A stretch of DNA of 64,000 bases, from contig MFIU01000001.1 of NCBI GenBank assembly GCA_001778985.1, positions 190,934-254,933 on the forward strand, in the 5' to 3' direction. Shown one piece after another: positions 9,120 through 53,517 of the stretch; position 1 is the first letter of the stretch, and the number at the start of each line of letters is the position of its first letter. The DNA is from Candidatus Giovannonibacteria bacterium RIFOXYD1_FULL_48_21 (GTDB taxonomy: Bacteria > Patescibacteriota > Minisyncoccia > JACPKW01 > UBA11713). A model generated the notes under the pieces. It was not told the DNA's origin. It made no database searches and saw nothing but the letters and a program-made list of their open reading frames with translations. A program made the translations under genes and the position numbers.

Positions 9120-9964
9120 TTGTTGACGGCAAAGCGCTTGCGGAGAAAATAAAAGCCGAATTGAAAGCGGATGTTTCGAAGCTAAACAAAAAAATTCGAC
9201 TGGCGGTGGTTAAAATCAGCTCGGATGCCGCGACTGAAAAATTTTTGGAGCAGAAAAGGAAATTCGCAGAGGCGATTGGAGTGGATGTCAGAATTTATGA
9301 AATACATCCGGATATCTCCACGAATAAACTCCGCGAGAAAGTTTCAGAGATTGTGCATATCAAAGAAAACAACGGGGTCATAGTTCAGCTTCCTTTGCCG
9401 CCGCAGATAAACACGCAATATATTCTGGACGCGATAGTTCCGGAAAAAGACCCGGACATGCTTTCTTCTAAAAGCTGGGGAGCGTTTGCGGCCGGATCCG
9501 CCCGCCGGCGGACAAAGATTCTGCCGCCGGTTGCGGGAGCGGTTAAAGCCGTATTTGATGAGCATAAAGTCGAGATTCGCGATAGAAACGCAGTAGTGAT
9601 AGGCGCCGGCCGCCTGGTGGGCAAGCCCCTCGCGACCTGGCTTTTGAACGCCGGGGCCACGGTTTCCGTGATTCACAGGGGCACCAAGAATCCGGAAGAA
9701 TATACTCGAAAAGCCGATATTATTATTTCCGGAGTTGGAAAACCGAAATTGATAACTCCTGTGATGGTGAAAGACGGGGTGGTGGCGATTGATTGCGGCA
9801 CTTCGGAGTCCCCGCCTGGGGCGGGGCAGGCCTCCAGGCAGGTGGTCGGAGATATTGACCCTGGAGTTTCAGAGAAAGCTTCTCTTTTCGCGCCGGTTCC
9901 GGGCGGGGTCGGCCCGGTTACGGTCGCGATGCTGTTTAAAAATCTAGTTGAGCTGTCAAAATGA
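9116..9964 (+). CDS. folD: Bifunctional methylene-THF dehydrogenase / methenyl-THF cyclohydrolase
   Basis: Typical FolD N-terminus (IDGKALAEKIK) and dinucleotide-binding region. Confidence 0.9.
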   Translation: MIVDGKALAEKIKAELKADVSKLNKKIRLAVVKISSDAATEKFLEQKRKFAEAIGVDVRIYEIHPDISTNKLREKVSEIVHIKENNGVIVQLPLPPQINTQYILDAIVPEKDPDMLSSKSWGAFAAGSARRRTKILPPVAGAVKAVFDEHKVEIRDRNAVVIGAGRLVGKPLATWLLNAGATVSVIHRGTKNPEEYTRKADIIISGVGKPKLITPVMVKDGVVAIDCGTSESPPGAGQASRQVVGDIDPGVSEKASLFAPVPGGVGPVTVAMLFKNLVELSK

Positions 9965-10428
9965 ATTATCTGGATTTGTTGATTATTTTTCTCGCGAAAT
10001 ATCTCGGCTGGGCGCTTGGAATTCTGGCGGTTTTTATTTTTTTAAAAAATAGGCGTCTTCTTTTGGAATCCTTCCTCTCGGCCGCGGTTGCGCGTTTCGG
10101 GATTACGGACCTTATCCGCTATTTTTACAATAGGCCGCGGCCATTTGAAGTTGGAGATTTCACTCCTTTGATTTCGCATGAATACGGCTATTCTTTTCCA
10201 TCTGGGCACGCCGCTTTTTTCTTCGCGCTCGCGACTGCGATATTTTTATACAACCGCCGCTGGGGCGCGGTGTTTTTCATCGGCGCTATTTTAATCAGCC
10301 TCGGCCGCGTTTGGGCTGGCGTTCATTGGTACTCGGACATTTTAGGAGGCGCGATTGTCGGTATTTTGACGAGTATTTTAGTTAATTTTCTTGTCAGAAA
10401 ATTTCAAAGGCCCGGGTCAAGTGTCTGA
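9961..10428 (+). CDS. PAP2 family phosphatase (undecaprenyl-diphosphatase-like), membrane
   Basis: All three PAP2 motifs present: KxxxxxxRP (YFYNRPRPF), PSGH, RxxxxxHxxxD (RVWAGVHWYSD). Confidence 0.8.
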   Translation: MNYLDLLIIFLAKYLGWALGILAVFIFLKNRRLLLESFLSAAVARFGITDLIRYFYNRPRPFEVGDFTPLISHEYGYSFPSGHAAFFFALATAIFLYNRRWGAVFFIGAILISLGRVWAGVHWYSDILGGAIVGILTSILVNFLVRKFQRPGSSV

Positions 10429-10704
10429 CCGCGGGCCTTGAGGTTGGTAAGGAACATCCGGTATAGATTTTATAAATTCATTATATTTTATTTCTTCAAG
10501 TTCCCTCCTAAGTAGTGCCTCAATGTGTCCAATGGCTTCTCCGGAGAGCCGCACCAGATATGACTTTCTGTCATTTCCACCTTGACGCGCTTTATTGAAT
10601 TCCGCGAGAATTTCTTCGAGCATGGCCCGCACGTCAACCGACTTTTTTCTGCGGCCGCCGAGATGCAGGTATAGCGCAAAACGTCTCCACCATAAAAAAG
10701 TCAT
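10417..10704 (-). CDS. Hypothetical small protein; weak HisE/MazG-like resemblance; real start probably the internal Met at about 10623
   Basis: ORF only; convergent with the PAP2 gene; no confident motif. Confidence 0.3.
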   Translation of the reverse strand: MTFLWWRRFALYLHLGGRRKKSVDVRAMLEEILAEFNKARQGGNDRKSYLVRLSGEAIGHIEALLRRELEEIKYNEFIKSIPDVPYQPQGPRSDT

Positions 10705-10743
10705 TTTATCCTCCTTTAATCTTTAAATTTTTTAAATTGCTGT

Positions 10744-10830
10744 TGGTGCCGCGGGAGGGGGTCGAACCCTCATGAGCTTTCGCTCGCAGGATTTTGAGTC
10801 CTGTGCGTCTGCCAGTTCCGCCACCGCGGC
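10744..10830 (-). tRNA. tRNA-Leu(CAA) with a long variable arm and encoded CCA
   Basis: Hand-folded cloverleaf: acceptor GCCGCGG/CCGCGGC, anticodon loop CTCAAAA, T-loop TTCGACC. Confidence 0.85.
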
Positions 10831-10837
10831 ATATTAT

Positions 10838-11074
10838 TTATTTTAATTGATCTAGAAATTTTCTTCCTTGCCCACTTTTAAGAAATTTTTCTCTTTTGCG
10901 TGCTTCCTCGTATGAAGCACAATTTTCAACAAGTACAGTTTCAAATGTTGCGTACGGTTTCGTAGTCAAATTATATCCTTCGTTGTGCTGTTTTAATCTT
11001 CTCGCGAAATTATTGGTAATTCCTACATATCTGTAGTTGTGTTTCATACTTTTAATTACATATACATGCACCAT
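10838..11074 (-). CDS. Small GIY-YIG nuclease family protein (paralog 1)
   Basis: VYVIKS...YVGIT...RL..HN GIY-YIG signature; 78 aa; stop lies 7 nt from the tRNA-Leu 5' end. Confidence 0.8.
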   Translation of the reverse strand: MVHVYVIKSMKHNYRYVGITNNFARRLKQHNEGYNLTTKPYATFETVLVENCASYEEARKREKFLKSGQGRKFLDQLK

Positions 11075-11185
11075 AGGATTTTGAGCTTGCCCGCCTTAGG
11101 CGGGTCGTGCGCGGTCGCCAGAGGCGACTAAATCTGCCAGTTCCGCTTTACCCGCCAGAGGCGGGCACCGCGGCCCGTCTCGTCT
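11075..11185 (-). pseudogene. Degenerate duplicate of the tRNA-Leu(CAA) 5' half (GCCGCGGTG..GCGGAACTGGCAGA..CTCAAAATCCT), interrupted by three 15-nt GC hairpins; ends exactly at the GIY-YIG ATG
   Basis: About 34 nt of ordered identity to nt 1-43 of the downstream tRNA; inserted hairpins CCCGCCTCTGGCGGG, GTCGCCTCTGGCGAC and CCCGCCTAAGGCGGG. Confidence 0.7.
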
Positions 11186-11270
11186 CGCCTCGTCGAGACA
11201 AGCAATACCTCGAATTTAAAAGTTTTTTAGCTTATTGTCAATTTGATTAATTTTTTATACGATTTTATAT

Positions 11271-12170
11271 ATGGCGGAATTTGGAGAACCCAGAAGAAGT
11301 TCAAGTATTTTCTTTATCGAACTTGACCGCATCAAGCCCAATTCCATGCAGCCCCGCACCGAATTCGATGAGGGGCGGCTTTCTGAACTCGCGGAATCAA
11401 TCCGGCAGTATGGGGTGCTGCAGCCGCTGGTGGTTCTCCGCCAGGAGAAGGCCACACCCACCGGCGTTGTCGCTGAATATGAGCTTATTGCCGGCGAGCG
11501 CCGTTTGCGCGCGGCCCGCTTAGCGGGCCTTCGCGAGGTGCCGGTTATCATCCGGCAGGAGTCCGCGGACAAAATTAAACTTGAGCTCGCCTTGGTGGAA
11601 AACGTCCAGCGGGAGGATTTAAACGTGGTTGACCGCGCCCAGGCCTTCCGCCGGTTGAATGAAGAATTCGGTCTTGGTCACAGGGATATCGGCGCGAGAA
11701 TCGGAAAATCGCGCGAATACGTTTCAAACTCGCTGCGTCTTTTGTCCCTTCCTTCCGAACTCCAGGCCTCGTTGCGGGACGGACGCATAACCGAAAGCCA
11801 CGCCCGGCTGTTGCTGACTTTGCAGTCTCAACCCCAGGAACAAAAAGCGCTCATGGACGATATTATTTTCAGAGGGCTTAACGTTCGCGAAACCGAACGC
11901 CTCACCAAAGAGCTTACCGCCGGAGTTAAAAAAGAAATCAAAAATCTTGACCCGGAAACAAAGACTTTGGAAGAAAAGCTCGCCGCGGCCCTGGGGGCTC
12001 GCGTCTATATTTCAAAAAATGAATCAGGCGGCCGGGTTTCGATTGAATTTTTTTCGCCGGAAGAATTAAGGGCTTTTGTGGAACGCTTCGAGCCCGAACC
12101 TATGAGCCCAGAAGGACAAGTGGTTTTGGCCGAGGTTCGGCCGGAAGACTTGGAAGAGTTTACGATCTGA
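11271..12170 (+). CDS. parB: ParB/Spo0J family partition protein
   Basis: ParB N-terminal box (GVLQPLVV, LIAGERRLRAARLAGL) and HTH region. Confidence 0.85.
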   Translation: MAEFGEPRRSSSIFFIELDRIKPNSMQPRTEFDEGRLSELAESIRQYGVLQPLVVLRQEKATPTGVVAEYELIAGERRLRAARLAGLREVPVIIRQESADKIKLELALVENVQREDLNVVDRAQAFRRLNEEFGLGHRDIGARIGKSREYVSNSLRLLSLPSELQASLRDGRITESHARLLLTLQSQPQEQKALMDDIIFRGLNVRETERLTKELTAGVKKEIKNLDPETKTLEEKLAAALGARVYISKNESGGRVSIEFFSPEELRAFVERFEPEPMSPEGQVVLAEVRPEDLEEFTI

Positions 12171-13884
12171 CCTCGGTGGTAACTTTTTTAACCCCCGCTA
12201 TTTTTTCGAGCTTCGGCTTGATTTTTTCAATCTCAGCCTTGTTTTTAGGGATGAACCTTACACGGATGGGCGCTTCTTCGTTGCCGGAGCGGGCCGATAT
12301 TAAAGTCTGAATGTTGATGCGGTTCTTGGCGAAGATTGAAGTGATGTCTTTGATAAAGCCCACCCGACTTTTTCCGTAAATTTTTACTTCCACCAGTTTT
12401 TCTTCAGGTTCCAGAAAAGTTCTCTTTGGCGAAATCCGGAGCGCCCTTCGAATTCTGTTTTTAGCCAGATTGGTTTTAACCAACGAGAGCCATTCCGGCG
12501 AAGGCCTTTTGTTTTTTTGGGTGATTATTTCTACCACTTCTCCCGACTGGAGTTCCCGCTCGAAAGCGACCATCCGTCCGTCTACTTTGGCGCCAGACGC
12601 GCGGTTGCCGATCTCCGAATGGATATGATAAGCGAAGTCCAGAGGAGTGGCGCCCTTGGGCAGGTCGATTACGTCGCCCTTCGGCGTTAAGACGAAAATT
12701 CGGTCTTGGAAAAAATCTATCTTGAACGCTTCGAGAAGTTCTTCGGAAGAAGAGCGCTCTTTTTTGAATTCCTTGTGCCAGTCGTGAAGTTGGCGAATCC
12801 AATTAAATTTCTGGCCCAGGATTTTTAAACCTTCTTTCGGTTTTCCGGCCTCGCTCCAGGCCCAATGGGCCGCAATGCCCGCTTCGGCCTCGCGGTGCAT
12901 CTGGGGAGTCCGAATCTGGAATTCCACCATGGTCCTGGCTTTGGTAAAAACGCTGGTGTGGAGCGATTGGTAGCCGTTCGGCTTGGGGAGAGCGATGTAA
13001 TCCTTGAATTTTCCAGGGACCGGTTTCCATAGTTTGTGGATTATGCCCACCGCGGCGTAGCAGTCCTTAATGTCGGGTACGATGATTCTTAAAGCTATCA
13101 AGTCTGCCAGATGCGTCCAGTCGCCGTCGTATCGCTTCAATTTTTGCCAGATGGAATAAAGGTGCTTGGCGCGGTAAGAGAGTTCGAGCGGTCTGATATT
13201 TTCTTTTAAAAGTTCTGCTTCGACCTGCGGCGCGATTTTCTTGAGGTAGCGTTCCCGCTCCGGCGCGATTTTTTTAACTTCGGAGGAAATCCTTTCGTAC
13301 TCCTGGGGGTAGAGGTATTTCATCGATAAATCTTCCAGCTGGGCTTTGACATTCCACATCCCCAAGCGTTCGGCCAGCGGGGCGTAGAGCGAGAGCGTTT
13401 CTCCGGCAATCCGTTCCCGCTTTTCCGGAGCAAGCCAGTCGGCAGTTTCCATATTATGGAGGCGGTCCGCGAGCTTGATGATTACCACCCGGATATCTTC
13501 GGCTACCGCCATGAACATTTTTCTGACCGACTCCAAGGCGCGGTCGGTGCCGGAGGCTTTAACTTTCTCCACCTTGGTGACCGCGTCCACCAAAAAGGCG
13601 ATTTCTTCTCCGAATTTTTTTCTAATCTCTGCGAGGGAGGTCGGGGTAGTTTCGGCCACGTCGTGCAGAAGCCCGGCCGCGATTGTGGCCCGATCCATTT
13701 TTAACTTAGCCAGTTTTAGCGAGACGGCGGCGGAATGAGTGAGGTAATCCTCGCCGGAGAGTCTTTTTTCGCCCGCGTGGATTTGGGCGGCGAAATCAAA
13801 AACCTTTTTCAAAAATTCTCTGTCTTTGACGGCGAGATTTAGGGAACTTAGTTCGCGTTCGTAATTCTCCCAACCCATAGTCAT
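12160..13884 (-). CDS. rel: Bifunctional (p)ppGpp synthetase/hydrolase, RelA/SpoT family
   Basis: HD hydrolase domain (LLHDVAE), synthetase domain and TGS region; the MTMGW start overlaps the topA stop (ATGA). Confidence 0.85.
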   Translation of the reverse strand: MTMGWENYERELSSLNLAVKDREFLKKVFDFAAQIHAGEKRLSGEDYLTHSAAVSLKLAKLKMDRATIAAGLLHDVAETTPTSLAEIRKKFGEEIAFLVDAVTKVEKVKASGTDRALESVRKMFMAVAEDIRVVIIKLADRLHNMETADWLAPEKRERIAGETLSLYAPLAERLGMWNVKAQLEDLSMKYLYPQEYERISSEVKKIAPERERYLKKIAPQVEAELLKENIRPLELSYRAKHLYSIWQKLKRYDGDWTHLADLIALRIIVPDIKDCYAAVGIIHKLWKPVPGKFKDYIALPKPNGYQSLHTSVFTKARTMVEFQIRTPQMHREAEAGIAAHWAWSEAGKPKEGLKILGQKFNWIRQLHDWHKEFKKERSSSEELLEAFKIDFFQDRIFVLTPKGDVIDLPKGATPLDFAYHIHSEIGNRASGAKVDGRMVAFERELQSGEVVEIITQKNKRPSPEWLSLVKTNLAKNRIRRALRISPKRTFLEPEEKLVEVKIYGKSRVGFIKDITSIFAKNRINIQTLISARSGNEEAPIRVRFIPKNKAEIEKIKPKLEKIAGVKKVTTEVRS

Positions 13885-16001
13885 GGTGCGGGCTTGGGGG
13901 GTAATTCTTTGGCTTGAAAGTCGCAGGATTTGGAGGAACATTTTATTCCGTTCTTAACCTCAACGAGGGGTGAGGAGCATTGGGGGCAGGTCTGACCGTT
14001 TGGTTTGGGCCAAGAGGCAAAGTCGCACTTGGGCCAGCGGGAACAGCCGTAGAAAATTTTTCCGCGCCGGGTAGAGCGCTCCACGATTTCGCCCTCATGG
14101 CATTTTAGGCAAGTTAAGTTTAACGACACCGGCGGCAGGGGCTTGGTGTTTTTGCATTCCGGAAATCCGGAGCAGGCTAAAAATCGTCCGAAACGCCCCC
14201 GCTTTATCACCATCGGTTTTCCGCATTTCTCGCAGAGCTCATCGGTGGCTTCTTGGAAATCCCGCTTCTCGACGCTTTCATATTTTTCCGCGAGATGCCG
14301 GGAGAAGGGGCCGTAGAATTCTCTGATGATTTTCTGCCAGGAAATTTCGCCGGAAGCCACTTCGTCCAGCTCCTCCTCCATTTTGGCCGTAAACTGGATG
14401 TCCACGATTTCCGGAAAATGTTCGACCAGCATGTCGTTGACGATGAAGCCGATTTCCGTCGGAACCAGGCGCTTTTTATCGTTGCGCTGGACGTAGCCCC
14501 GTTCCTGAATCGTGGCGATAATCGGAGCATAAGTGGAAGGCCGGCCGATTCCGTATTTCTCAAGTATTTTTACCAGGCTCGCTTCGGTCCAGCGGGGCGG
14601 CGGCTCGGTAAAATGCTCGAGGGGCGTTATTTCCCGCAGATTCAATTTTGTCCCGGGTTCGAGCTTGGGCAGCTGGACTTCCAAAAATTTTGATGGATAG
14701 ATTTTAAGAAAACCGTCGAATTTCATCGCCTGCCCGGTAGCCCGAAAGGTATAATTGCCGGCTTTAATGTCCGCCGTGGTGGTGTCGAAAAGCGATGGCG
14801 GCATCTGGGAAGCTGAAAATCTCCGCCAAATCAGCTCGTAGAGTTTCAGCTGCCGCCGGTTCAAGAAATTTTTTATTGATTCCGGGGTTCTCGCTGGATC
14901 GGTGGGACGGATTGCTTCGTGGGCCTCTTGGGCGCCTTTAGTTTTGGTTTTGAAAATGCGGGGCGTTTTTAAGGCGTATTTTTCTCCTTGTTCTTTAATC
15001 AGAAATTCTCTGGCGGCCGCGAGAGCATCCTGGGAAAGATTCAAAGAGTCCGTACGCATGTAGGTGATGAGTCCCACCGGACCTTCGCCAAGTTCAATTC
15101 CCTCATAGAGCTGTTGGGCTAAGAGCATGGTTTGTTTAGCGGTGAAGCCAAGGCGCCGGAAAGCTTCTTGCTGCAGGGTGGAGGTGGTGAAAGGCGCCGG
15201 GGGGTTTTTGACCATTTCTTTTTTTTCAGAGTTTTCCACCAGCCAGTCTTTTCCCGCGAGTCGGGCCAGAATTTCTTCCGCCGCCTGCTTATTTTTGATG
15301 GCAAATTTGTCTAGCGTTTCGCCGTCTTTTTTTATCAAGACAGCTTCAAATTCTTTTCCGGTCTTTTTTTCAGTTTCGAGTTTAGCCAAGATGGTCCAAT
15401 ACTCTTGGGGCTGGAAGCTCTGAATTTCCCGCTCGCGCTCGACAATCAGCCGAACCGCCACGGATTGGACTCGGCCGGCCGAGAGGCCGCGGTAGATTTT
15501 TTTCCACAAAAAAGGAGAAAGCTTGTAGCCGACCAGGCGGTCAAGGATTCTTCGTGCCTGCTGGGCATCCACCAATTTCATGTCCATCTCTCGCGGATTC
15601 TTAAGCGCTTCCTCAATGGCCCGCTTGGTGATTTCGTGAAAAACAATTCTCTCCGTTTTTGGAATTTGGTTTTTGGAATTTGGTTTCTCCAGGTCCAGGG
15701 CCTCGGTCAGGTGCCAGGCGATGGCCTCGCCTTCCCGGTCTTCATCCGTGGCGAGAATGATTTTGTCCGCCTTCTGGACTTCTTTCTTTAGGGTGTTTAC
15801 GTTTTTTCGGGCCCGGGTGGGAATGACGTACTTCGGCTTAAAATCTTTATTTTCGTCGATGCCCAGCGAAGATTTGGGAAGATCGCGGATGTGTCCGTAG
15901 GAAGAAAGAACCTTAAAATCTCCAGGAACAAAACTGGAGATGGTGCGCGCTTTGGTGGGCGACTCTACGATTATTAATTTCACCCCGTTAGAATTTTTCA
16001 T
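13881..16001 (-). CDS. topA: DNA topoisomerase I
   Basis: TOPRIM N-terminus (KLIIVESPTKARTI), active-site region and C-terminal Cys4 zinc ribbons. Confidence 0.95.
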   Translation of the reverse strand: MKNSNGVKLIIVESPTKARTISSFVPGDFKVLSSYGHIRDLPKSSLGIDENKDFKPKYVIPTRARKNVNTLKKEVQKADKIILATDEDREGEAIAWHLTEALDLEKPNSKNQIPKTERIVFHEITKRAIEEALKNPREMDMKLVDAQQARRILDRLVGYKLSPFLWKKIYRGLSAGRVQSVAVRLIVEREREIQSFQPQEYWTILAKLETEKKTGKEFEAVLIKKDGETLDKFAIKNKQAAEEILARLAGKDWLVENSEKKEMVKNPPAPFTTSTLQQEAFRRLGFTAKQTMLLAQQLYEGIELGEGPVGLITYMRTDSLNLSQDALAAAREFLIKEQGEKYALKTPRIFKTKTKGAQEAHEAIRPTDPARTPESIKNFLNRRQLKLYELIWRRFSASQMPPSLFDTTTADIKAGNYTFRATGQAMKFDGFLKIYPSKFLEVQLPKLEPGTKLNLREITPLEHFTEPPPRWTEASLVKILEKYGIGRPSTYAPIIATIQERGYVQRNDKKRLVPTEIGFIVNDMLVEHFPEIVDIQFTAKMEEELDEVASGEISWQKIIREFYGPFSRHLAEKYESVEKRDFQEATDELCEKCGKPMVIKRGRFGRFLACSGFPECKNTKPLPPVSLNLTCLKCHEGEIVERSTRRGKIFYGCSRWPKCDFASWPKPNGQTCPQCSSPLVEVKNGIKCSSKSCDFQAKELPPKPAP

Positions 16002-42133: not shown

Positions 42134-42693
42134 TGCGCGGGTTCACCTTACTCGAACTTATAATCACCCTCGCCATTTTCACGATTGTGGCCGGCATTTT
42201 ATTGGCCGATTATCCGCGTTTCGCCGCCCGGATCAACCTCCGCCGCTCCGCCCAGGAGATTGCGCTCTCGATCCGCGAGGCTCAATTCTCGGCTTTCGCG
42301 GTGAGGGGATTTCAGAGCGGCGGGCAGACGATTTTCAAATCCTGGGGGATTAATTTCAACAAAAGCGTTTCGGACAAAGAATATACTTTGTTCGTGGATG
42401 CCAATGGGGATTTTGAGTATGACCCGCCGCCGGCCGCGCCGAACGAACTTGTCAAAAAATTTCAAGTTGCCGGAACTTCCAAAATCGTAAGCCTTTGCGC
42501 CGGGCTTAAAACCGCGATCCCGGACACCTGCAGTCTCAACCGGCTCGATATAATTTATCAGCGCCCCAACCCGGATACCATCCTGAAAGGCAACGGCAGC
42601 GTGTATTCGGATTTGGAGATAATTATTCGGTCCCCGGACGGGCTCCAGAGGACCATCGTGGTTTGGTCAACCGGCCAGATATCCGTAGAGTGA
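42133..42693 (+). CDS. Minor pilin / pseudopilin (GspH/FimT-like)
   Basis: GFTLLELIITLAIFTIVAG prepilin N-terminus. Confidence 0.75.
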   Translation: MRGFTLLELIITLAIFTIVAGILLADYPRFAARINLRRSAQEIALSIREAQFSAFAVRGFQSGGQTIFKSWGINFNKSVSDKEYTLFVDANGDFEYDPPPAAPNELVKKFQVAGTSKIVSLCAGLKTAIPDTCSLNRLDIIYQRPNPDTILKGNGSVYSDLEIIIRSPDGLQRTIVVWSTGQISVE

Positions 42694-42695
42694 TT

Positions 42696-43187
42696 ATGAA
42701 GGGTTTTTCTCTTCTGGAAACAATTGTCGCCATCTCGATACTGACGCTCGCCCTTTTGGGGCCGCTGGCGCTGGCCGCTTTCGCGCTCCGCTCCGCCAGC
42801 TTGTCTGAAAATCAAGTCATCGCTTTTAATTTGGCGGAAGAGGGGATGGAGTTTGTCATAAATAAAAGGGATTCCAACATTTTCGCTGGCGCCGGAAACT
42901 GGCTCGAGGGCCTGACCAACTGCCAGTCTGCCAACGGCTGTTTTGTTGATGTTACCAATAATTCAGTGCAGAGATGTTCTGCGAATTGCCCTTTTCTGAA
43001 ACGCAATTCATCTTCCGGGTTGTACAACTATGCTTCCGGTCCTGATACTATTTTCCGGAGAAGAACGGTGCTTGAAAATGTGGGCTCAAACCAGGACGAA
43101 CGCAAAGTCAAGGTGAGCGTTTCTTGGGCGGAACGCTTCGGGAACCGCTCTTTTACCTTGGAACATAATATTTTTAAGAAGAGATGA
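42696..43187 (+). CDS. Minor pilin (PilV/GspI-like); the ORF track starts earlier, at 42663
   Basis: KGFSLLETIVAISILTLALLG prepilin N-terminus. Confidence 0.7.
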   Translation: MKGFSLLETIVAISILTLALLGPLALAAFALRSASLSENQVIAFNLAEEGMEFVINKRDSNIFAGAGNWLEGLTNCQSANGCFVDVTNNSVQRCSANCPFLKRNSSSGLYNYASGPDTIFRRRTVLENVGSNQDERKVKVSVSWAERFGNRSFTLEHNIFKKR

Positions 43188-43188
43188 T

Positions 43189-43769
43189 ATGAAACGCGAA
43201 GCAGGTTTTACGTTGTTGGAAATGCTGGTATCTTTGGCGGTTTTTTCAGTCGCGCTTTTAATAATTATGGTTACTCTTTTTTCCGTCTTTAACGCCCAGC
43301 GAAAAGCCATCGCGATTCAAAACGCCCAAGACAATCTGCGTTTCGCTTTTGAACATATGACCAAGGAGATTCGGGTCGGCCGCGTTTTTCACTGCGGCAT
43401 TTCCGGCACGCTGACCCAGCCTCAAGATTGCCCCAACGGTTCAACTCCTTCTTCTTTCAGTTTTAAAAATGACGTCGGCCAGACCGTGACTTATCAAGTT
43501 ATTTCCAATCAGCTGGTAAAATCCTCCACCGCCTCCCGGCCCTGCGACAATAGTCCGCCTACGCTCGCGGACTGCCAGAAAATCACGGCGCCGGAAGTGG
43601 TGATAGTGGATCGAGTTGCTTTTTACGTTGACGGTTCGGCCGCTTTTGATGGCAAGCAGGATAGGGTAACGATTGTGCTGGAAGGCCAGGTGCGGGATCC
43701 GCGGGGGATAGGCACCGCCGAGCTTAATCTTCAGACTACGGTTTCCAAAAGAAGTTTAGTCGACCAGCC

Positions 43770-43773
<4 letters not shown>
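43189..43773 (+). CDS. Minor pilin (PilW/GspJ-like)
   Basis: AGFTLLEMLVSLAVFSVALL prepilin N-terminus. Confidence 0.7.
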
Positions 43774-46856
<3,083 letters not shown>

Positions 46857-46881
<25 letters not shown>

Positions 46882-47507
46882 AAATCTCAAAGCATATTCA
46901 TTCGTGTTTACTGGTAGAGGACGAGAGCAAAACGATTTTGATTGACCCGGGGAATTATACTTTTGAAGAGAAGGGGCTTGATATTGGGAAATTAGAAAAG
47001 CTGGACTTTCTTTTGATAACCCATGAGCATCCCGACCACATGCACATGCCTTTGATTAAAGAAATATTGGAGAAATTTCCACAAGCCCAAATTATAAGCA
47101 ACAATTCCGTCAAAAAAATTTTAGAAGAAAGAGGGATAAACGCAACCGAAAATGTTGAACATTCAATGTTCAACATTTTGAAAGCACCGCACGAGCTTTT
47201 GCTCGGAGGCCGCACGGCGGAAAATACCTTGTTTAATATCTCGCAAAAATTAACTCATCCCGGGGACTCTCTTAAATTTGATAAGACCTGCGAGATTTTG
47301 GCGCTTCCCATTCAGGCGCCGTGGGGAAGCTTTGTCGCCTCGGTGGAAAAAGCGGCTCTTTTAAAGCCGAAAATCGTCATTCCAATTCACGACTGGCATT
47401 GGAAGGACGCCGCCCGCCGGAGAATGTACGATATGGCGAGCCAATATCTGTCAGAAAAAGACATTGATTTTCGCGGCCTCGAAACTGGCGAAGAAATATC
47501 GCTATGA
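46857..47507 (+). CDS. MBL-fold metallo-hydrolase
   Basis: HxHxDH motif (THEHPDHMH). Confidence 0.55.
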
Positions 47508-47516
47508 TATATCATA

Positions 47517-49235
47517 GTGGTTGAGTTTATGAATCAAGAGACTAAAATTTGTCAAAATTGTAAAAGCGAATTCGTAATAGAACCCGAGGATTTCAAGTTC
47601 TACGAAAAAATGCAGGTGCCTCCGCCGACATTTTGTCCGGAGTGCAGGTTTCAGCGGAGGTTGATGTTTAGAAACGAACGGAGTTTATACAAACGAAAAT
47701 GTGATTTGTGCGGGAAAGAAATTATAACCGCTTATTCTCCGGATAAACCCTACAAAGTTTATTGCAATCCCTGCTGGTGGTCTGATAATTGGGACGTTTT
47801 AGGATATGGGCAGGAGTATAACCCCTCTAGAACTTTTTTCGAACAATTTCGCGCCCTTCAGTTTAAGGTGCCCTATCCAAATCTTATAATGGATCATCCC
47901 ACCTTGATAAATAGCGAATATACCAATCATAGTGGCCATCTGAAGAATTGTTATTTAATCTATAACGCAGATATCTGTGAAAATGTTCATTATGCAGAGA
48001 TTTTAGCAAATGATAAAGATAGTATGGATTCGACCATGCTTGGCGAGTCCGAACTCTGCTATCAAAATATAAATTGCGGACATTGTTATAAAACTTTTTT
48101 CTCGGAAGACTGCAACGATTGTGTAGAAGTGTATTTTTCAAAGGCCTGCATTGGATGTAGTAAATGTTTTGGCTGCATCAACTTAAGGAACAAGCAATAC
48201 CATATTTTTAACAAGCCCTACACTAAAGAAGAATATGAACAAAAACTGAAAGAATTTCTGCTCGATTCTCATACGGGTATCGAGAATCTGAAAAAGGAAG
48301 CAATTAAGTTCTGGCAGTCCATCCCTCATAAATTTATGCATGAGCGTCACAACGTGAATGTTTCGGGAGATTATGTTTTTGTTTCCAAAAATGCGAAGGA
48401 TATGTATCAGGTCCGCGGCATAGAAGATGGCAAGTACTGCCAATGGATTACTACGCAACCAGTGAAAGATGTTTATGATTATACAGAATGGGGGAATAAT
48501 GCCCAAAGGATTTATGAATGCATAACGGTTGGGGAATTTGTTGATAATGTGAAGTTTTCCTACTTCGGCGCCTTTAAACATTCTATGAATGTGGAATATT
48601 CAAGCGGTTGTATTTCATCTTCTGATATATTTGGGTGTATTGGAGTTCGGAAAAAGCAGTACTGTATTTTAAATAAGCAGTATACGAAGGAGGGTTATAT
48701 AAAATTGCGTGAACGGATTATTAAAGATATGGACGAGAGACCTTATGTAGATTCAAAGGGGCGAGTATTCAAATACGGAGAATTTTTTCCGTATGATTTA
48801 AGTTTATTTGATTATAACGAGTCTAGCGCCGATCAATATTTCTATCCCTTGTCCAAAGAGAAGGTTTTGGAAAGAGGATGGCGGTGGTATGAGGGGAAGC
48901 CGGGGGAGTATAAAATTACGATGAAGAAAGAGGATATTCCGGACAGCATTAATGATGTTCAAGATAGCATTGTGGACGAAGTTATAGAATGCGCGGAGTG
49001 CCAGAGGCCATATCGCATTATTGATAGGGAACTAGCTTTGCTGAGGCGCTTTGGCCTGCCAATTCCCAGAAAATGCCCGAACTGCCGCCACAAGGAACGC
49101 TTAACTAGGATAAACCCGCCACGTTTATGGGACAGAAAATGCGACCGTTGCGGCGCTGATATTAAAACCAGTTATGCTCCCGAGCGTCCCGAAAAGATTT
49201 ATTGCGCGAAATGTTATCAAGAGGAATTTGTATGA
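47517..49235 (+). CDS. Large Cys-rich protein: duplicated double zinc-ribbon modules at both termini and internal Cys-containing repeats; function unknown
   Basis: N-terminus FCPECRFQRRL...KCDLCGKEI..YSPDKPYKVYCNPCWW parallels C-terminus KCPNCRHKERL...KCDRCGADI..YAPERPEKIYCAKCYQ; internal repeats FGCINLRNKQYHIFNKPYTKEEY / FGCIGVRKKQYCILNKQYTKEGY. Confidence 0.5.
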   Translation: MVEFMNQETKICQNCKSEFVIEPEDFKFYEKMQVPPPTFCPECRFQRRLMFRNERSLYKRKCDLCGKEIITAYSPDKPYKVYCNPCWWSDNWDVLGYGQEYNPSRTFFEQFRALQFKVPYPNLIMDHPTLINSEYTNHSGHLKNCYLIYNADICENVHYAEILANDKDSMDSTMLGESELCYQNINCGHCYKTFFSEDCNDCVEVYFSKACIGCSKCFGCINLRNKQYHIFNKPYTKEEYEQKLKEFLLDSHTGIENLKKEAIKFWQSIPHKFMHERHNVNVSGDYVFVSKNAKDMYQVRGIEDGKYCQWITTQPVKDVYDYTEWGNNAQRIYECITVGEFVDNVKFSYFGAFKHSMNVEYSSGCISSSDIFGCIGVRKKQYCILNKQYTKEGYIKLRERIIKDMDERPYVDSKGRVFKYGEFFPYDLSLFDYNESSADQYFYPLSKEKVLERGWRWYEGKPGEYKITMKKEDIPDSINDVQDSIVDEVIECAECQRPYRIIDRELALLRRFGLPIPRKCPNCRHKERLTRINPPRLWDRKCDRCGADIKTSYAPERPEKIYCAKCYQEEFV

Positions 49236-50941: not shown

Positions 50942-51964
50942 ATGAGATATATGCCTGCGGAGTGGGAGGAACACAGGGCGACATGGCTCGCCTGGCCGCA
51001 CAACAAGGAGCACTGGCCAGGGATGGATTTGGAACGGATTTGGCTCACTTATGTCAGAATAATTCAGCTTTTAATCTCGTCGGGAGAGAAAGTGGGCGTT
51101 CTGGCGGATGACGCCTTGATGCAGGAACAGGCTAGGTCATTCCTCTGGAAGAGGGATGTGCCGATTGACAGCGAGATAATCCAGTTCGTCCACATTCCCA
51201 CGAACTCCTCGTGGGTCCGTGACTGGGGCCCGATTTTTGTTAGAACCATCCATGGAATTTGGGCCACAGATTGGAGGTTTAACGGGTGGGGCGGAGAATA
51301 CCCGCCGTGGGAAAAGGACGATGCAGCGCCGACAAAAATAGCCGAGGATTTAAAAATCCCCTGCCTTGATATTAGCGACATTTGCCTTGAAGGGGGCGCT
51401 ATTGAAGTCAATGGCGAGGGCACTCTTCTTACTGTGGAGGGTTGCCTAAATCATAAAAAGCGAAACCCCCGGTTAGAAAAAGAGAATCTGGAATATCTCT
51501 TTAGGGATGAGCTTGGTGTCACCAACGTTATCTGGCTTCCCCGTAAAATCGCGTCTGATCACACTGGGCACGTGGATAATATCGCCCGGTTCGTTTATAC
51601 AAACGTCATTCTTTGCGCTCTGGAGGATGACCGCCGCGATGAGAATTACGAAGCGCTTCGGGAGAATTTTCTGGCGCTTGAACGTGCTCGCGACGCGAAA
51701 GGGGAACGTTTAGTGGTTTTGCCGCTGCCCATGCCCGAGCCTGTGTATTACGAAAAGGAGCGTCTGCCCGCGAGCTACGCGAATTTTTACATCGCGAACC
51801 GCGCGGTGCTTGTTCCTACTTTTAACTGCAGTCGGGACGAGAAAGCGCTGAAGTTGATTGAGGAGTTTTTCCCTCGCCGCAGGGTTGTCGGCATTGACTG
51901 CCGCGACCTTCTCTGGGGTATGGGGACAATCCATTGCTCCGCGATGCAGCAGCCCGTAGCGTAG
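50942..51964 (+). CDS. aguA: Agmatine deiminase (porphyranase-type PAD superfamily)
   Basis: MPAEWE.H..TW..WPH N-terminus and C-terminal GGG.IHC (here GMGTIHCSAMQQP). Confidence 0.8.
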   Translation: MRYMPAEWEEHRATWLAWPHNKEHWPGMDLERIWLTYVRIIQLLISSGEKVGVLADDALMQEQARSFLWKRDVPIDSEIIQFVHIPTNSSWVRDWGPIFVRTIHGIWATDWRFNGWGGEYPPWEKDDAAPTKIAEDLKIPCLDISDICLEGGAIEVNGEGTLLTVEGCLNHKKRNPRLEKENLEYLFRDELGVTNVIWLPRKIASDHTGHVDNIARFVYTNVILCALEDDRRDENYEALRENFLALERARDAKGERLVVLPLPMPEPVYYEKERLPASYANFYIANRAVLVPTFNCSRDEKALKLIEEFFPRRRVVGIDCRDLLWGMGTIHCSAMQQPVA

Positions 51965-52059
51965 CGCCAGCTTGGATAGGCCGTTGCGCTTCTTGTTCTA
52001 AAAAAGGGAACCCCGATGGTCACACCTGACCGTCGGGGCCTTTTGTTTCTTGCCTCCTT

Positions 52060-53517
52060 TTATATTGTCTCCATTACATACTTCACCAGAAACGGCCAAG
52101 CTATGGTCGCGTCCGCCTTTATTTCAGCGGTTTTGGCATCCGGCTCGAATTTTCTCCAGGAGATGTTTTCTGAATATTTGCATCCCCCCAGGCTACCGAT
52201 ATGTTCAGGGTCCGGACATATCCGCACACCCATCGAGTACATCACCTCCGGCAGGCTTCTCCCTGTATGGATTTTCTCGATTTCTATCAGCGGCGCTATG
52301 TTTTGGACATTATTTCTGGGCCCGCCTCCGCCGATCGTGAAGATCGCCAGCTTCTTCCCGTTCCTTTTTGCCTCGAGAACGAAGTTTCGGAGAAAAAGCG
52401 TGGAGTGCTCCGCGTTCATAATCAGCCGCTCGAGTCCTTTTTCCTCTCTGTTTTGATTGTGAACGAAGAAATCATTGAACATCTCCGAGTTGGTCATGTC
52501 GGGGATATCTACTGGGATACCCTTTTCATAGGCGGATTTAAGAATGGCGCGCTGTTCCTTAAAATGCTCCGTTAAATATTCTCCGATCATGCGATTGAGC
52601 TCAATCCAGCCGATGTGTTTTAAACCATCGAGGTTTATTATAACTTCCCGGAAAATTTTCTCGACGTGGTCGAGATTGGTTTCCGGTTCGATGAGATCAG
52701 TAATGCGGTTGAGCTTAAGCGCGGCCAGAAGTTTGTCGGACATTTTTGGGTCGTGCTTAAAATGCTTAAGCCCCATACCTTCAACTAAGCCGTGCGCCTG
52801 GATGGCCCCGGTCGATGAGATAAAATCGACCATGCCAAAATCAATCATGTCGCAGATTACTAACCCCATTTTGGCCGGAGTCATCGCTCCCGATAGAGTA
52901 AGGATTGTTTTATATTCCGGATCGCGGAACATAATTCCGGCAAGCCGCGCGCCTTCTTTCATCGAGGCGCCGATTTCTCCGAAACTTCCTAAAAATTTTA
53001 TCAGAGAGGCGACGCCCGAAGTTTCCCCATCTAGGTATTCTTTCAAAGTCAGGTAAAGAATGGGAATGACCAAATATGGGTCTGCGAAAATCACGTCAGG
53101 GTAGTATCCGGTCTGCGTTTGCTTCGGCTTTGCTTTTTCAAACTGGTTGATGAAGATTGCCCGGTCCGGTTTCTTGAAGATGGCGTCTTCGTACCGCTCC
53201 GAGAAATATCCCACCACTACCGCGGTCCCGCCTTGATAGGGGGCCACGGCGTATCTTTCCGGAGTAATTAGGTCGCAAAACCATTTTTTATCAACCATTT
53301 CCTGTAAAAGTCTGCCCAGGGGACTTTCCGGCTTGCCGTCATAGATCAAAAACGGTTTAAGCGATTTTCGGCATTCTCCCGTGAGCGTATGCGCCACCTC
53401 GCCGAGCATTCTTGCGCCGAAGGAGCAAAAACGCATGCCTTCCACGACGATTTCGCCGACGGTTTGATGCTTTCGCAAATCCAGAGGTATCAGTTCTTCC
53501 AGCTTCAAGTTTTTCAT
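52060..53517 (-). CDS. Deoxyhypusine synthase family protein (possible homospermidine-synthase-like role), with an N-terminal extension of about 95 aa
   Basis: TLSGAMTPAKMGLVICDMIDFGMVDFISSTGA, IFTIGGGGPRNNV and ISWRKFEPDAKTAEIKADATIAWPFLV align with DHS conserved blocks. Confidence 0.55.
   Translation of the reverse strand: MKNLKLEELIPLDLRKHQTVGEIVVEGMRFCSFGARMLGEVAHTLTGECRKSLKPFLIYDGKPESPLGRLLQEMVDKKWFCDLITPERYAVAPYQGGTAVVVGYFSERYEDAIFKKPDRAIFINQFEKAKPKQTQTGYYPDVIFADPYLVIPILYLTLKEYLDGETSGVASLIKFLGSFGEIGASMKEGARLAGIMFRDPEYKTILTLSGAMTPAKMGLVICDMIDFGMVDFISSTGAIQAHGLVEGMGLKHFKHDPKMSDKLLAALKLNRITDLIEPETNLDHVEKIFREVIINLDGLKHIGWIELNRMIGEYLTEHFKEQRAILKSAYEKGIPVDIPDMTNSEMFNDFFVHNQNREEKGLERLIMNAEHSTLFLRNFVLEAKRNGKKLAIFTIGGGGPRNNVQNIAPLIEIEKIHTGRSLPEVMYSMGVRICPDPEHIGSLGGCKYSENISWRKFEPDAKTAEIKADATIAWPFLVKYVMETI

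Follow-up and report, generated by a model that had tools for sequence, protein, structure and literature searches.

Candidatus Giovannonibacteria bacterium RIFOXYD1_FULL_48_21 encodes, in a 64,000-nucleotide stretch of contig MFIU01000001.1 (GenBank assembly GCA_001778985.1, positions 190,934 to 254,933; hereinafter, the window), a cysteine-rich protein that belongs to a large family of Patescibacteria. The conserved context of this family is arrays of paralogs beside orphan ATPases that resemble type IV coupling proteins (T4CPs). Each family protein appears to carry predicted zinc fingers at both ends and, between them, a duplicated beta-rich core that we provisionally regard as a candidate new fold. 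We tentatively favor, as one possible account, the view that these proteins act as soluble partners, each specific for its ligand, of a membrane-anchored machine built on the orphan ATPases.

To define the family, we used an exhaustive search of 1.84 billion representatives, which yielded 2,247 clusters at 50% identity (E ≤ 1e-30), nearly all of 545 to 600 amino acids (aa); looser thresholds gave 3,830 clusters (1e-10) and 5,461 clusters (1e-3). Word-indexed searches returned at least ∼8,000 matches and, among the matches listed, all are "hypothetical proteins" from Patescibacteria; the named lineages are all in NCBI's Parcubacteria group. Species-representative genomes contain at least 526 family loci, and orthologs are 55 to 67% identical over their full length across candidate phyla. 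Family-bearing records labeled as other organisms (L046, JAMPXW010000001.1, Burkholderiales; L051, Bdellovibrionales; L052, Gammaproteobacteria) are probably mis-binned or mislabeled, since at least L046 shares neighbor-gene clusters with Patescibacteria loci. Plasmids gave no family match, the single phage match covers the finger module alone, and the target matched no PADLOC defense model, with isolated weak matches among 15 paralogs (best E = 3.3e-4, one member). On these results, we rejected a mobile-element, defense, or phage protein.

In other genomes, as many as nine full-length paralogs of the family follow one another in tandem on the same strand, and some genomes have additional copies on other contigs. 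For 96% of 146 members, the best match between genomes (median identity, 57%) exceeds the best match within the locus (median, 43%). Because the nearest relative of these members thus lies in another genome, we conclude that the paralogs are ancient. The family is under strong purifying selection, and its best-conserved orthogroup includes the window copy, a solo member. Several matches (L014, L018, L030, L037, L053, L071, and L072) are longer; inteins or insertions were considered and rejected, as the search had merged adjacent paralogs. N-terminal extensions with a KTLRQ[DG]SASST motif occur in paralogs L002:4517-6199, 9698-11461, 11517-13286, and 13326-15065, the last of which has the motif three times.

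When the flanking ORFs (open reading frames) of 82 family loci were clustered, the dominant neighbor was a soluble P-loop ATPase that matches the TrwB_AAD_bind, T4SS-DNA_transf, TraG-D_C, and DUF87 models, as well as the CedD "DNA-translocating ATPase" and TraD models. A short form (∼490 aa) is 67 to 83% identical across lineages. A long paralog (610 to 870 aa) is often found at the other end of the family array; in 18 of 19 long forms, the ATPase domain is followed by a CxxC-x17-CxxC finger (zf_Tbcl_2, 52.6 bits; TIGR04272, 54.4 bits) and then by a low-complexity tail. The short ATPase (L078:8316-9770 and 19 others) has a conserved C terminus, EP[LM]I, and the conservation of this ATPase across Parcubacteria is far above expectation for a conjugation-derived gene.

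The linkage was seen from both sides. From the family side, 29 of 81 loci have an ATPase gene no more than 10 kb away, and in 23 it is the immediate neighbor; the chance expectation is ∼4% (p = 3e-20), given roughly two copies per ∼1-Mb genome. From the ATPase side, 33 of the 36 short-ATPase loci of at least 12 kb, on independent metagenome contigs, contain a family gene. For 47 short-ATPase genes, the contigs extend 2.5 kb or more in the 3′ direction; the first gene downstream belongs to the family in 15 of these, one of the first two in 31, and one of the first three in 36, often with CutA in between. Upstream of the short ATPase, a gene that we call c8 occupies position −1 in 60 cases and another, TM450, position −2 in 55. 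The recurrent order is SecD-SecF-c6 (Sigma70_r4 plus HARE-HTH)-TM450-c8-ATPase (short)-[CutA]-family × n-[ATPase (long)-LTD/PKD surface protein]. Thus, the conserved context of the family consists of paralog arrays beside orphan T4CP-like ATPases.

Neither TM450 nor c8 has a library or PDB sequence match. TM450 (L078:6388-7794) is a protein of ∼450 aa with N-terminal transmembrane helices and a conserved C-terminal GPPAGLPIF tail, and it may be the membrane anchor that is absent from the ATPase. The c8 product (L078:7797-8312, with equivalents in ∼60 loci) is a small membrane protein with a conserved RAHR[IV]RN[DE]LVH motif, whose Rx4H pattern resembles the HEPN signature; Pfam, NCBIfam, and PADLOC models were all unmatched. 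According to a 2025 survey (PMC12102498), 2,918 Patescibacteria genomes encode 5,713 VirD4-type T4CP homologs, of which only 148 lie close to virB4; the explanation suggested there is exaptation. The surveyed homologs are evidently the ATPases found beside the family.

The target protein has a mass of ∼65 kDa, 32 cysteines, and 12 CxxC motifs. No transmembrane segment or signal peptide was found in it (maximum hydropathy, 1.04), and it is predicted to be a soluble, cytoplasmic protein. It is near neutral (pI 6.8) with an acidic core, and among its regions only C-terminal finger A is clearly basic. A database protein of 568 aa (P0001) is 100% identical to the target over 568 aa, and orthologs open with MNxET (MNQET… in the target) at an ATG four codons inside the ORF that starts with GTG. 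The 568-aa form is the likely product because P0001 and the homologs begin at this ATG (47529), which is residue 1 in our numbering.

The two termini are homologous modules of eight cysteines each (hhalign probability, 99.5%; E = 5e-23; 36% identity), as an initial reading of the sequence, here called the original prediction, had claimed. Each module comprises a finger A and a finger B. In an alignment of 487 family members, which is the basis of all cysteine statistics given here, cysteines lost together were scored pairwise (r). The cysteines of N-terminal finger A are kept in 95 to 97% of members (co-loss r, 0.6 to 0.8), N-terminal finger B is lost as a whole unit in ∼30% of the family (r, 0.59 to 1.00), C-terminal finger A has co-loss r values of 0.85 to 0.94, and the cysteines of C-terminal finger B are kept in 97.5 to 98.6%. 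Because the four cysteines of each set persist or disappear together (r, 0.6 to 1.0), the alignment supports four separate Cys4 sites, which are predicted to bind zinc. In the AlphaFold2 (AF2) model, the fingers have the knuckle-and-helix arrangement typical of treble clefs.

The original prediction had taken these modules for double zinc ribbons (DZR), an assignment that has to be replaced: the DZR models (PF12773 and PF18912) matched neither the target nor any of 15 paralogs at E ≤ 10. Judged from sequence, each terminus is instead a divergent copy of a catalogued, uncharacterized pair of treble clefs, zf_Tbcl (PF13451) and zf_Tbcl_2 (PF23477), because a 93-aa phage pair aligns to residues 4 to 83. 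N-terminal finger A scores 16.7 bits against zf_Tbcl, under the cutoff of 24; this model is matched by 8 of 15 paralogs (best E = 1.7e-5), and its CxxC...F.F...E..FY...CxxCR pattern is visible in the target. C-terminal finger B marginally passes zf_Tbcl_2 (27.6 bits; cutoff, 27) and scores 20.9 bits against TIGR04272, the NCBIfam CxxC-x17-CxxC model, under its cutoff of 36. The zf_Tbcl_2 model is likewise matched by 8 of 15 paralogs, and both copies of finger B have the spacing together with an aromatic-x-P...RP.[VI]YC core.

The phage pair (L085:1489-1770, on the human-gut phage contig MT837064.1) has the same two-finger order and spacing as the target, with the motif CxxC-F.F...E..FY-...-CxxCR followed by CxxC-x17-CxxC with RP.YC, and is 34.6% identical to it over the aligned residues (tblastn). 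It scores 88.7 bits for zf_Tbcl and 72 bits for zf_Tbcl_2, whereas the target's fingers score at or under the Pfam cutoffs. Stand-alone proteins of this kind consist of the ∼90-residue module alone, whereas in the target two modules flank a 400-residue core. No assigned function, solved structure, or literature was found for the zf_Tbcl plus zf_Tbcl_2 module. The phage gene lies directly 3′ of a sigma-70-like gene (both within L085:811-1770), and the Patescibacteria cassette likewise has a Sigma70_r4 plus HARE-HTH protein (c6) nearby. LIM domains of the CRP family also have two consecutive treble-clef-like fingers with CxxC-x17-CxxC spacing. The best match of the family profile to them (positions 513 to 564; E = 9.5e-4, ∼20 bits) is marginal and driven by the cysteine pattern; LIM ligands are C2HC plus C4, whereas those of the target are all cysteines, and no LIM Pfam model matches the target.

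Internal repeats in the middle of the protein, also part of the original prediction, were borne out as a tandem duplication of a ∼130-residue unit (M1 and M2; hhalign probability, 99.4%; E = 8.5e-22). The FGC..R.K.Y.I.NK.Y.KE.Y repeats are the ends of these larger units, and the core has periodicities of ∼12 and ∼25 residues. Cysteines are indeed present at the ends of M1 and M2, with CxxC spacing at the end of M1, but the core cysteines do not behave as a metal site. Retention is 93% for C210, 97% for C213, 80% for C216, 82% for C141, and 96% for C370, the only one that M2 retains, with pairwise co-loss r values of ≤0.4. We therefore rejected an iron-sulfur or zinc site at GCxxCFGC: conservation of the core cysteines is only partial and their losses do not coincide, so they are not a conserved metal center.

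All paralogs share the fingers, the repeat ends (FGC..N.K.Y), the helix at residues 93 to 118, and the YGEFFP..YNE motif. The extreme C terminus is conserved as CYQxEV. Conservation of the M1 and M2 bodies is 0.62 to 0.65 inside the orthogroup and 0.39 to 0.41 in other paralogs.

Residues ∼95 to 480 had no match in Pfam, PADLOC, or PHROGs (target and 14 paralogs), and the core had none in NCBIfam (target and two divergent paralogs). Sequence and profile searches of the PDB gave only marginal LIM-type matches on the C-terminal fingers and none on the core. AF2 modeled the full-length protein from 41 orthologs with a pLDDT (predicted local distance difference test) of 81 and a pTM (predicted template modeling score) of 0.82, the repeats being less confident; a core-only model from 131 diverse sequences reached a pLDDT of 86.7 and a pTM of 0.83, with the M2 half above 90. 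With the full-length model, Foldseek found nothing in the PDB (best E = 3.6) and only small zinc-ribbon proteins in BFVD. With the core model, the only PDB matches were left-handed beta-helix proteins (LpxD, GlmU, LpxA, and gamma-carbonic anhydrase; best match, 3pmo, E = 2.4e-4), which were not superposable. Both have short periodic beta rungs, but the TM-scores are 0.08 to 0.16, the root mean square deviations (rmsd) are 15 to 21 Å, and the probabilities are ≤0.6; the modeled core has long beta-hairpins, not a regular triangular helix. As modeled, the likeness is one of rung texture and is spurious as a fold match, because TM-scores are ∼0.1 and rmsd values 18 to 20 Å. On these values, and with no Hexapep match for the target or 15 paralogs, we rejected the left-handed beta-helix acyltransferase superfamily. 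The duplicated core is therefore provisionally a candidate new fold, and the claim that no characterized family has this layout stands across Pfam, NCBIfam, PADLOC, PHROGs, PDB sequences, and Foldseek.

In the account that we favor, the family proteins would act as partner subunits, whether adaptors or receptors, of a membrane-anchored ATPase machine. The fingers (above all C-terminal finger B), the repeat ends, and the post-core motif would form a common scaffold and docking interface, while the paralog-specific faces of both beta-rich repeats would bind a different cargo, protein or nucleic acid, in each paralog. The window copy would be expressed from a housekeeping operon (LigA…GatCAB). 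A common docking scaffold with paralog-specific recognition faces is suggested because the M1 and M2 bodies are conserved within orthogroups and not between them, and the presence of the most conserved finger in the long ATPase suggests a common binding partner.

DotN, which is encoded with the Legionella ATPase DotL, is a zinc-binding protein. Recognition subunits dedicated to a T4CP are exemplified by DotM, DotN, IcmS, IcmW, and LvgA, which are soluble, are encoded with the TraG/VirD4-type ATPase DotL, and recognize its substrates (PMC12960579); by analogy, the family proteins may play a similar part. The likeness comes from gene order only, and the DotL partners have no sequence or fold relationship to the family. 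Unlike DotL, the family's ATPase is an orphan that is not near virB4 (PMC12102498), has no transmembrane segment of its own, and scores far below curated T4CP cutoffs; unlike the DotL subunits, the family proteins are ∼570 aa long and form an ancient multiparalog family.

Several observations weigh against a role as ATPase partners. Gene order is the sole tie between family and ATPase, conserved order in compact Patescibacteria genomes can reflect descent rather than function, and SecD and SecF are conserved in the same block as the cassette. A single family copy is present within 10 kb in 38 of the 84 loci fetched. In only 1 of 18 cases does a gene of the window's orthogroup directly adjoin an ATPase gene; most often, the orthogroup is found within arrays that border on one or between TM450 and c8 (L015 and L027). 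In the window, tblastn found no ATPase, TM450, c8, c6, or c16 gene. Since the ATPases are far below the T4CP cutoffs and have no PDB sequence match, T4CP-like behavior is an extrapolation. The 55 to 67% full-length identity is unusually high for an adaptor and would also fit an enzyme. Finally, the T4CP homolog of the one genetically tractable species was reported not to be essential (PMC12102498). A bolder version, which we consider doubtful, is that the family, TM450, c8, the two orphan T4CP-like ATPases, and perhaps CutA constitute an unrecognized core membrane translocation machine distinct from type IV secretion systems, in which eight to ten ancient paralogs would serve as interchangeable cargo receptors and the core would be a new fold.

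Other readings have to be weighed against the partner role. These organisms are unable to make nucleotides and must scavenge DNA, and the family proteins might serve the uptake, salvage, or repair of DNA by binding or processing nucleic acids, with the ATPase as a DNA translocase. The basic helix of finger A (CPxCRxQRR), the mean net charge of +4.6 of C-terminal finger A, and the CedD and TraD matches of the ATPases would fit this, as would the window neighbors, namely, DNA ligase, a YfbR-like HD protein of the 5′-deoxynucleotidase type, an MBL-fold protein, and type IV pilin genes farther upstream; one homologue is even named "Zn ribbon nucleic-acid-binding protein," an automatic label. We nevertheless consider this unlikely as it stands. 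The protein has a pI of 6.8, an acidic core, and a finger B that is not basic; the LigA/HD/MBL context is not conserved; family-library scans revealed no nuclease, helicase, or other nucleic-acid enzyme signature; and eight to ten ancient paralogs with paralog-specific surfaces are hard to fit to generic DNA handling. This reading partly overlaps the partner role if the cargo is nucleic acid. A lesser chance is given to an autonomous enzyme or regulator with its active center in the duplicated core, for instance, a metal or iron-sulfur center at GCxxCFGC, for which the ATPase neighborhood would be inherited synteny with no bearing on function. Whole-length identity across phyla, a CxxCxxC-like motif in the core, invariant polar residues in both repeats (K139-N140, E151, and D167; K287-N288, E299, and D317), and the many solo members far from any ATPase speak for it, but the core cysteines do not disappear as a set, C216 is present in only 80% of members, an invariant histidine is absent, and family libraries, the PDB, and Foldseek gave no enzyme family or fold match. 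The K-N, E, D, and Y positions follow the period of the rungs and may amount to structural ladders, and the reciprocal linkage (33 of 36) is too strong to dismiss.

By analogy with substrate arrays beside secretion ATPases, the family proteins could also be cargo (effectors) exported by the ATPase machine, which we hold to be less probable again. Arrays of one to nine genes directly 3′ of a secretion-type ATPase with membrane partners, the conserved extreme C terminus, and the epibiotic life of Patescibacteria (PMC12102498) are what this would predict. Effectors usually diversify fast, however, whereas this family shows very high conservation and stable orthogroups across candidate phyla; the signal peptide is absent; the compact model with four zinc sites (pTM, 0.82) appears ill suited to unfolded translocation; and the same finger inside the long ATPase points to a part of the machine and not to a tag on cargo. 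Last, the target might work with its window neighbors in nucleotide metabolism or tRNA transamidation (HD, MBL, and GatCAB), as overlapping or closely spaced same-strand genes and the ATGA overlap with gatC might indicate. This reading is largely refuted and very improbable, because the context is not conserved: among the 81 loci, only the closest relative (L005) shares LigA, GatC, and GatA, and none has the HD or MBL gene.

The family and its cassette are described nowhere in the searchable literature, in which we also found nothing on Patescibacteria zinc-finger families of this kind. What is known, by profile likeness, is that the terminal modules belong to catalogued, uncharacterized finger families. 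For the core and for the layout as a whole, no relative could be detected, which would make the family and the candidate system new, with a function deduced only from gene order. A large part of bacterial diversity belongs to the Patescibacteria, whose genomes measure ∼1 Mb. Up to nine or ten copies of a 1.7-kb gene are retained in them, roughly 1 to 2% of coding capacity, and the maintenance of these copies under strong purifying selection in such small genomes implies an important function. Through the two-way gene linkage, the orphan VirD4-type ATPases gain a candidate family of partners and a place in a defined cassette (the TM450-c8-ATPase-CutA-family array), and the terminal modules give the two uncharacterized Pfam finger families a first functional context. 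The role of the orphan VirD4 homologs was left open by the 2025 survey (PMC12102498), and the linkage makes this question addressable by interaction and localization experiments. If a translocation machine exists, it would explain the role of thousands of "orphan" VirD4 homologs and could be central to the exchange of proteins or nucleic acids between these ultrasmall symbionts and their surroundings or hosts.

Within the window, the order of genes is pilin genes-LigA-HD-MBL-target-GatCAB (Table 1). The claimed ATGA overlap with gatC was found as described, and the upstream HD and MBL genes were confirmed by Pfam as HD_3/YfbR-like and MBL-fold, respectively. The original prediction also placed the gene among nucleotide-metabolism hydrolases; this is true of the window but specific to its lineage. 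L005 is alone among the 81 loci in having the LigA/GatCAB setting, with two family copies after LigA and neither HD nor MBL, and no other family member has an HD or MBL neighbor. We therefore rejected a conserved HD/MBL/GatCAB context. A tblastn search found no second family copy in the window, where the target is a single copy.

Table 1 Features of the target gene and its surroundings (window coordinates; residues of the 568-aa product)
Feature	Coordinates	Strand	Description
Whole ORF	47517..49235	+	572 aa from GTG 47517; probable start ATG 47529, 568 aa; stop TGA 49233-49235
N-terminal double-finger module	47535..47777	+	Residues 3-83; homologous to C-terminal module
N-terminal finger A	47550..47645	+	C8, C11...C36, C39; CxxC-x24-CPxCR, basic helix; zf_Tbcl-type treble clef
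N-terminal finger B	47700..47774	+	C58, C61...C79, C82; CxxC-x17-CxxC; dispensable finger
Core repeat M1	47862..48242	+	Residues 112-238; beta-rich, ∼12-residue rungs; ends GCxxCFGC..LRNKxYxIFNxPYxKEEY
G-C-x-x-C-F-G-C motif	48153..48176	+	C210, C213, C216; end of M1
Core repeat M2	48315..48704	+	Residues 263-392; ends FGC(370)..RKKxYCILNKQYxKEEY
Post-core motif PYxDxxGRxxKYGEFFPxxLSxFxYNExxA	48741..48830	+	Residues 405-434; family-wide, invariant or near-invariant columns
C-terminal double-finger module	48975..49217	+	Residues 483-563; aligned by hhalign to N-terminal module
C-terminal finger A	48990..49085	+	C488, C491...C516, C519; most basic region, mean net charge +4.6
C-terminal finger B	49140..49214	+	C538, C541...C559, C562; CxxC-x17-CxxC, zf_Tbcl_2; most conserved finger
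ATGA overlap, gatC start/target stop	49232..49235	+	gatC ATG 49232-49234, target TGA 49233-49235; GatC Pfam match
Upstream same-strand genes	44291..47507	+	LigA 44291-46267, HD_3 46264-46881, MBL-fold 46857-47507; local operon context

The HD gene (GC content, 0.37; GC content at third codon positions [GC3], 0.33) and the target (GC, 0.40; GC3, 0.42), at the two ends of the segment from 46264 to 49235, are flanked by genes of markedly higher GC content (LigA, 0.48; GatA, 0.49; agmatine deiminase, 0.53). In the L005 layout, the second family copy occupies the place held by HD and MBL in the window. Directly 5′ of ligA, the window contains three type IV pilin- or pseudopilin-like ORFs with N-terminal GFTLLE motifs (42663-44288); L005 has the same pilin-ligA synteny together with PilT/PilC-like and prepilin peptidase-like genes (L005:1784-6177). 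At 50942 to 53517, an agmatine deiminase gene (PAD_porph, E = 7.6e-112) adjoins a long (485-aa) deoxyhypusine synthase-like gene on the opposite strand, the two forming a polyamine-related pair.

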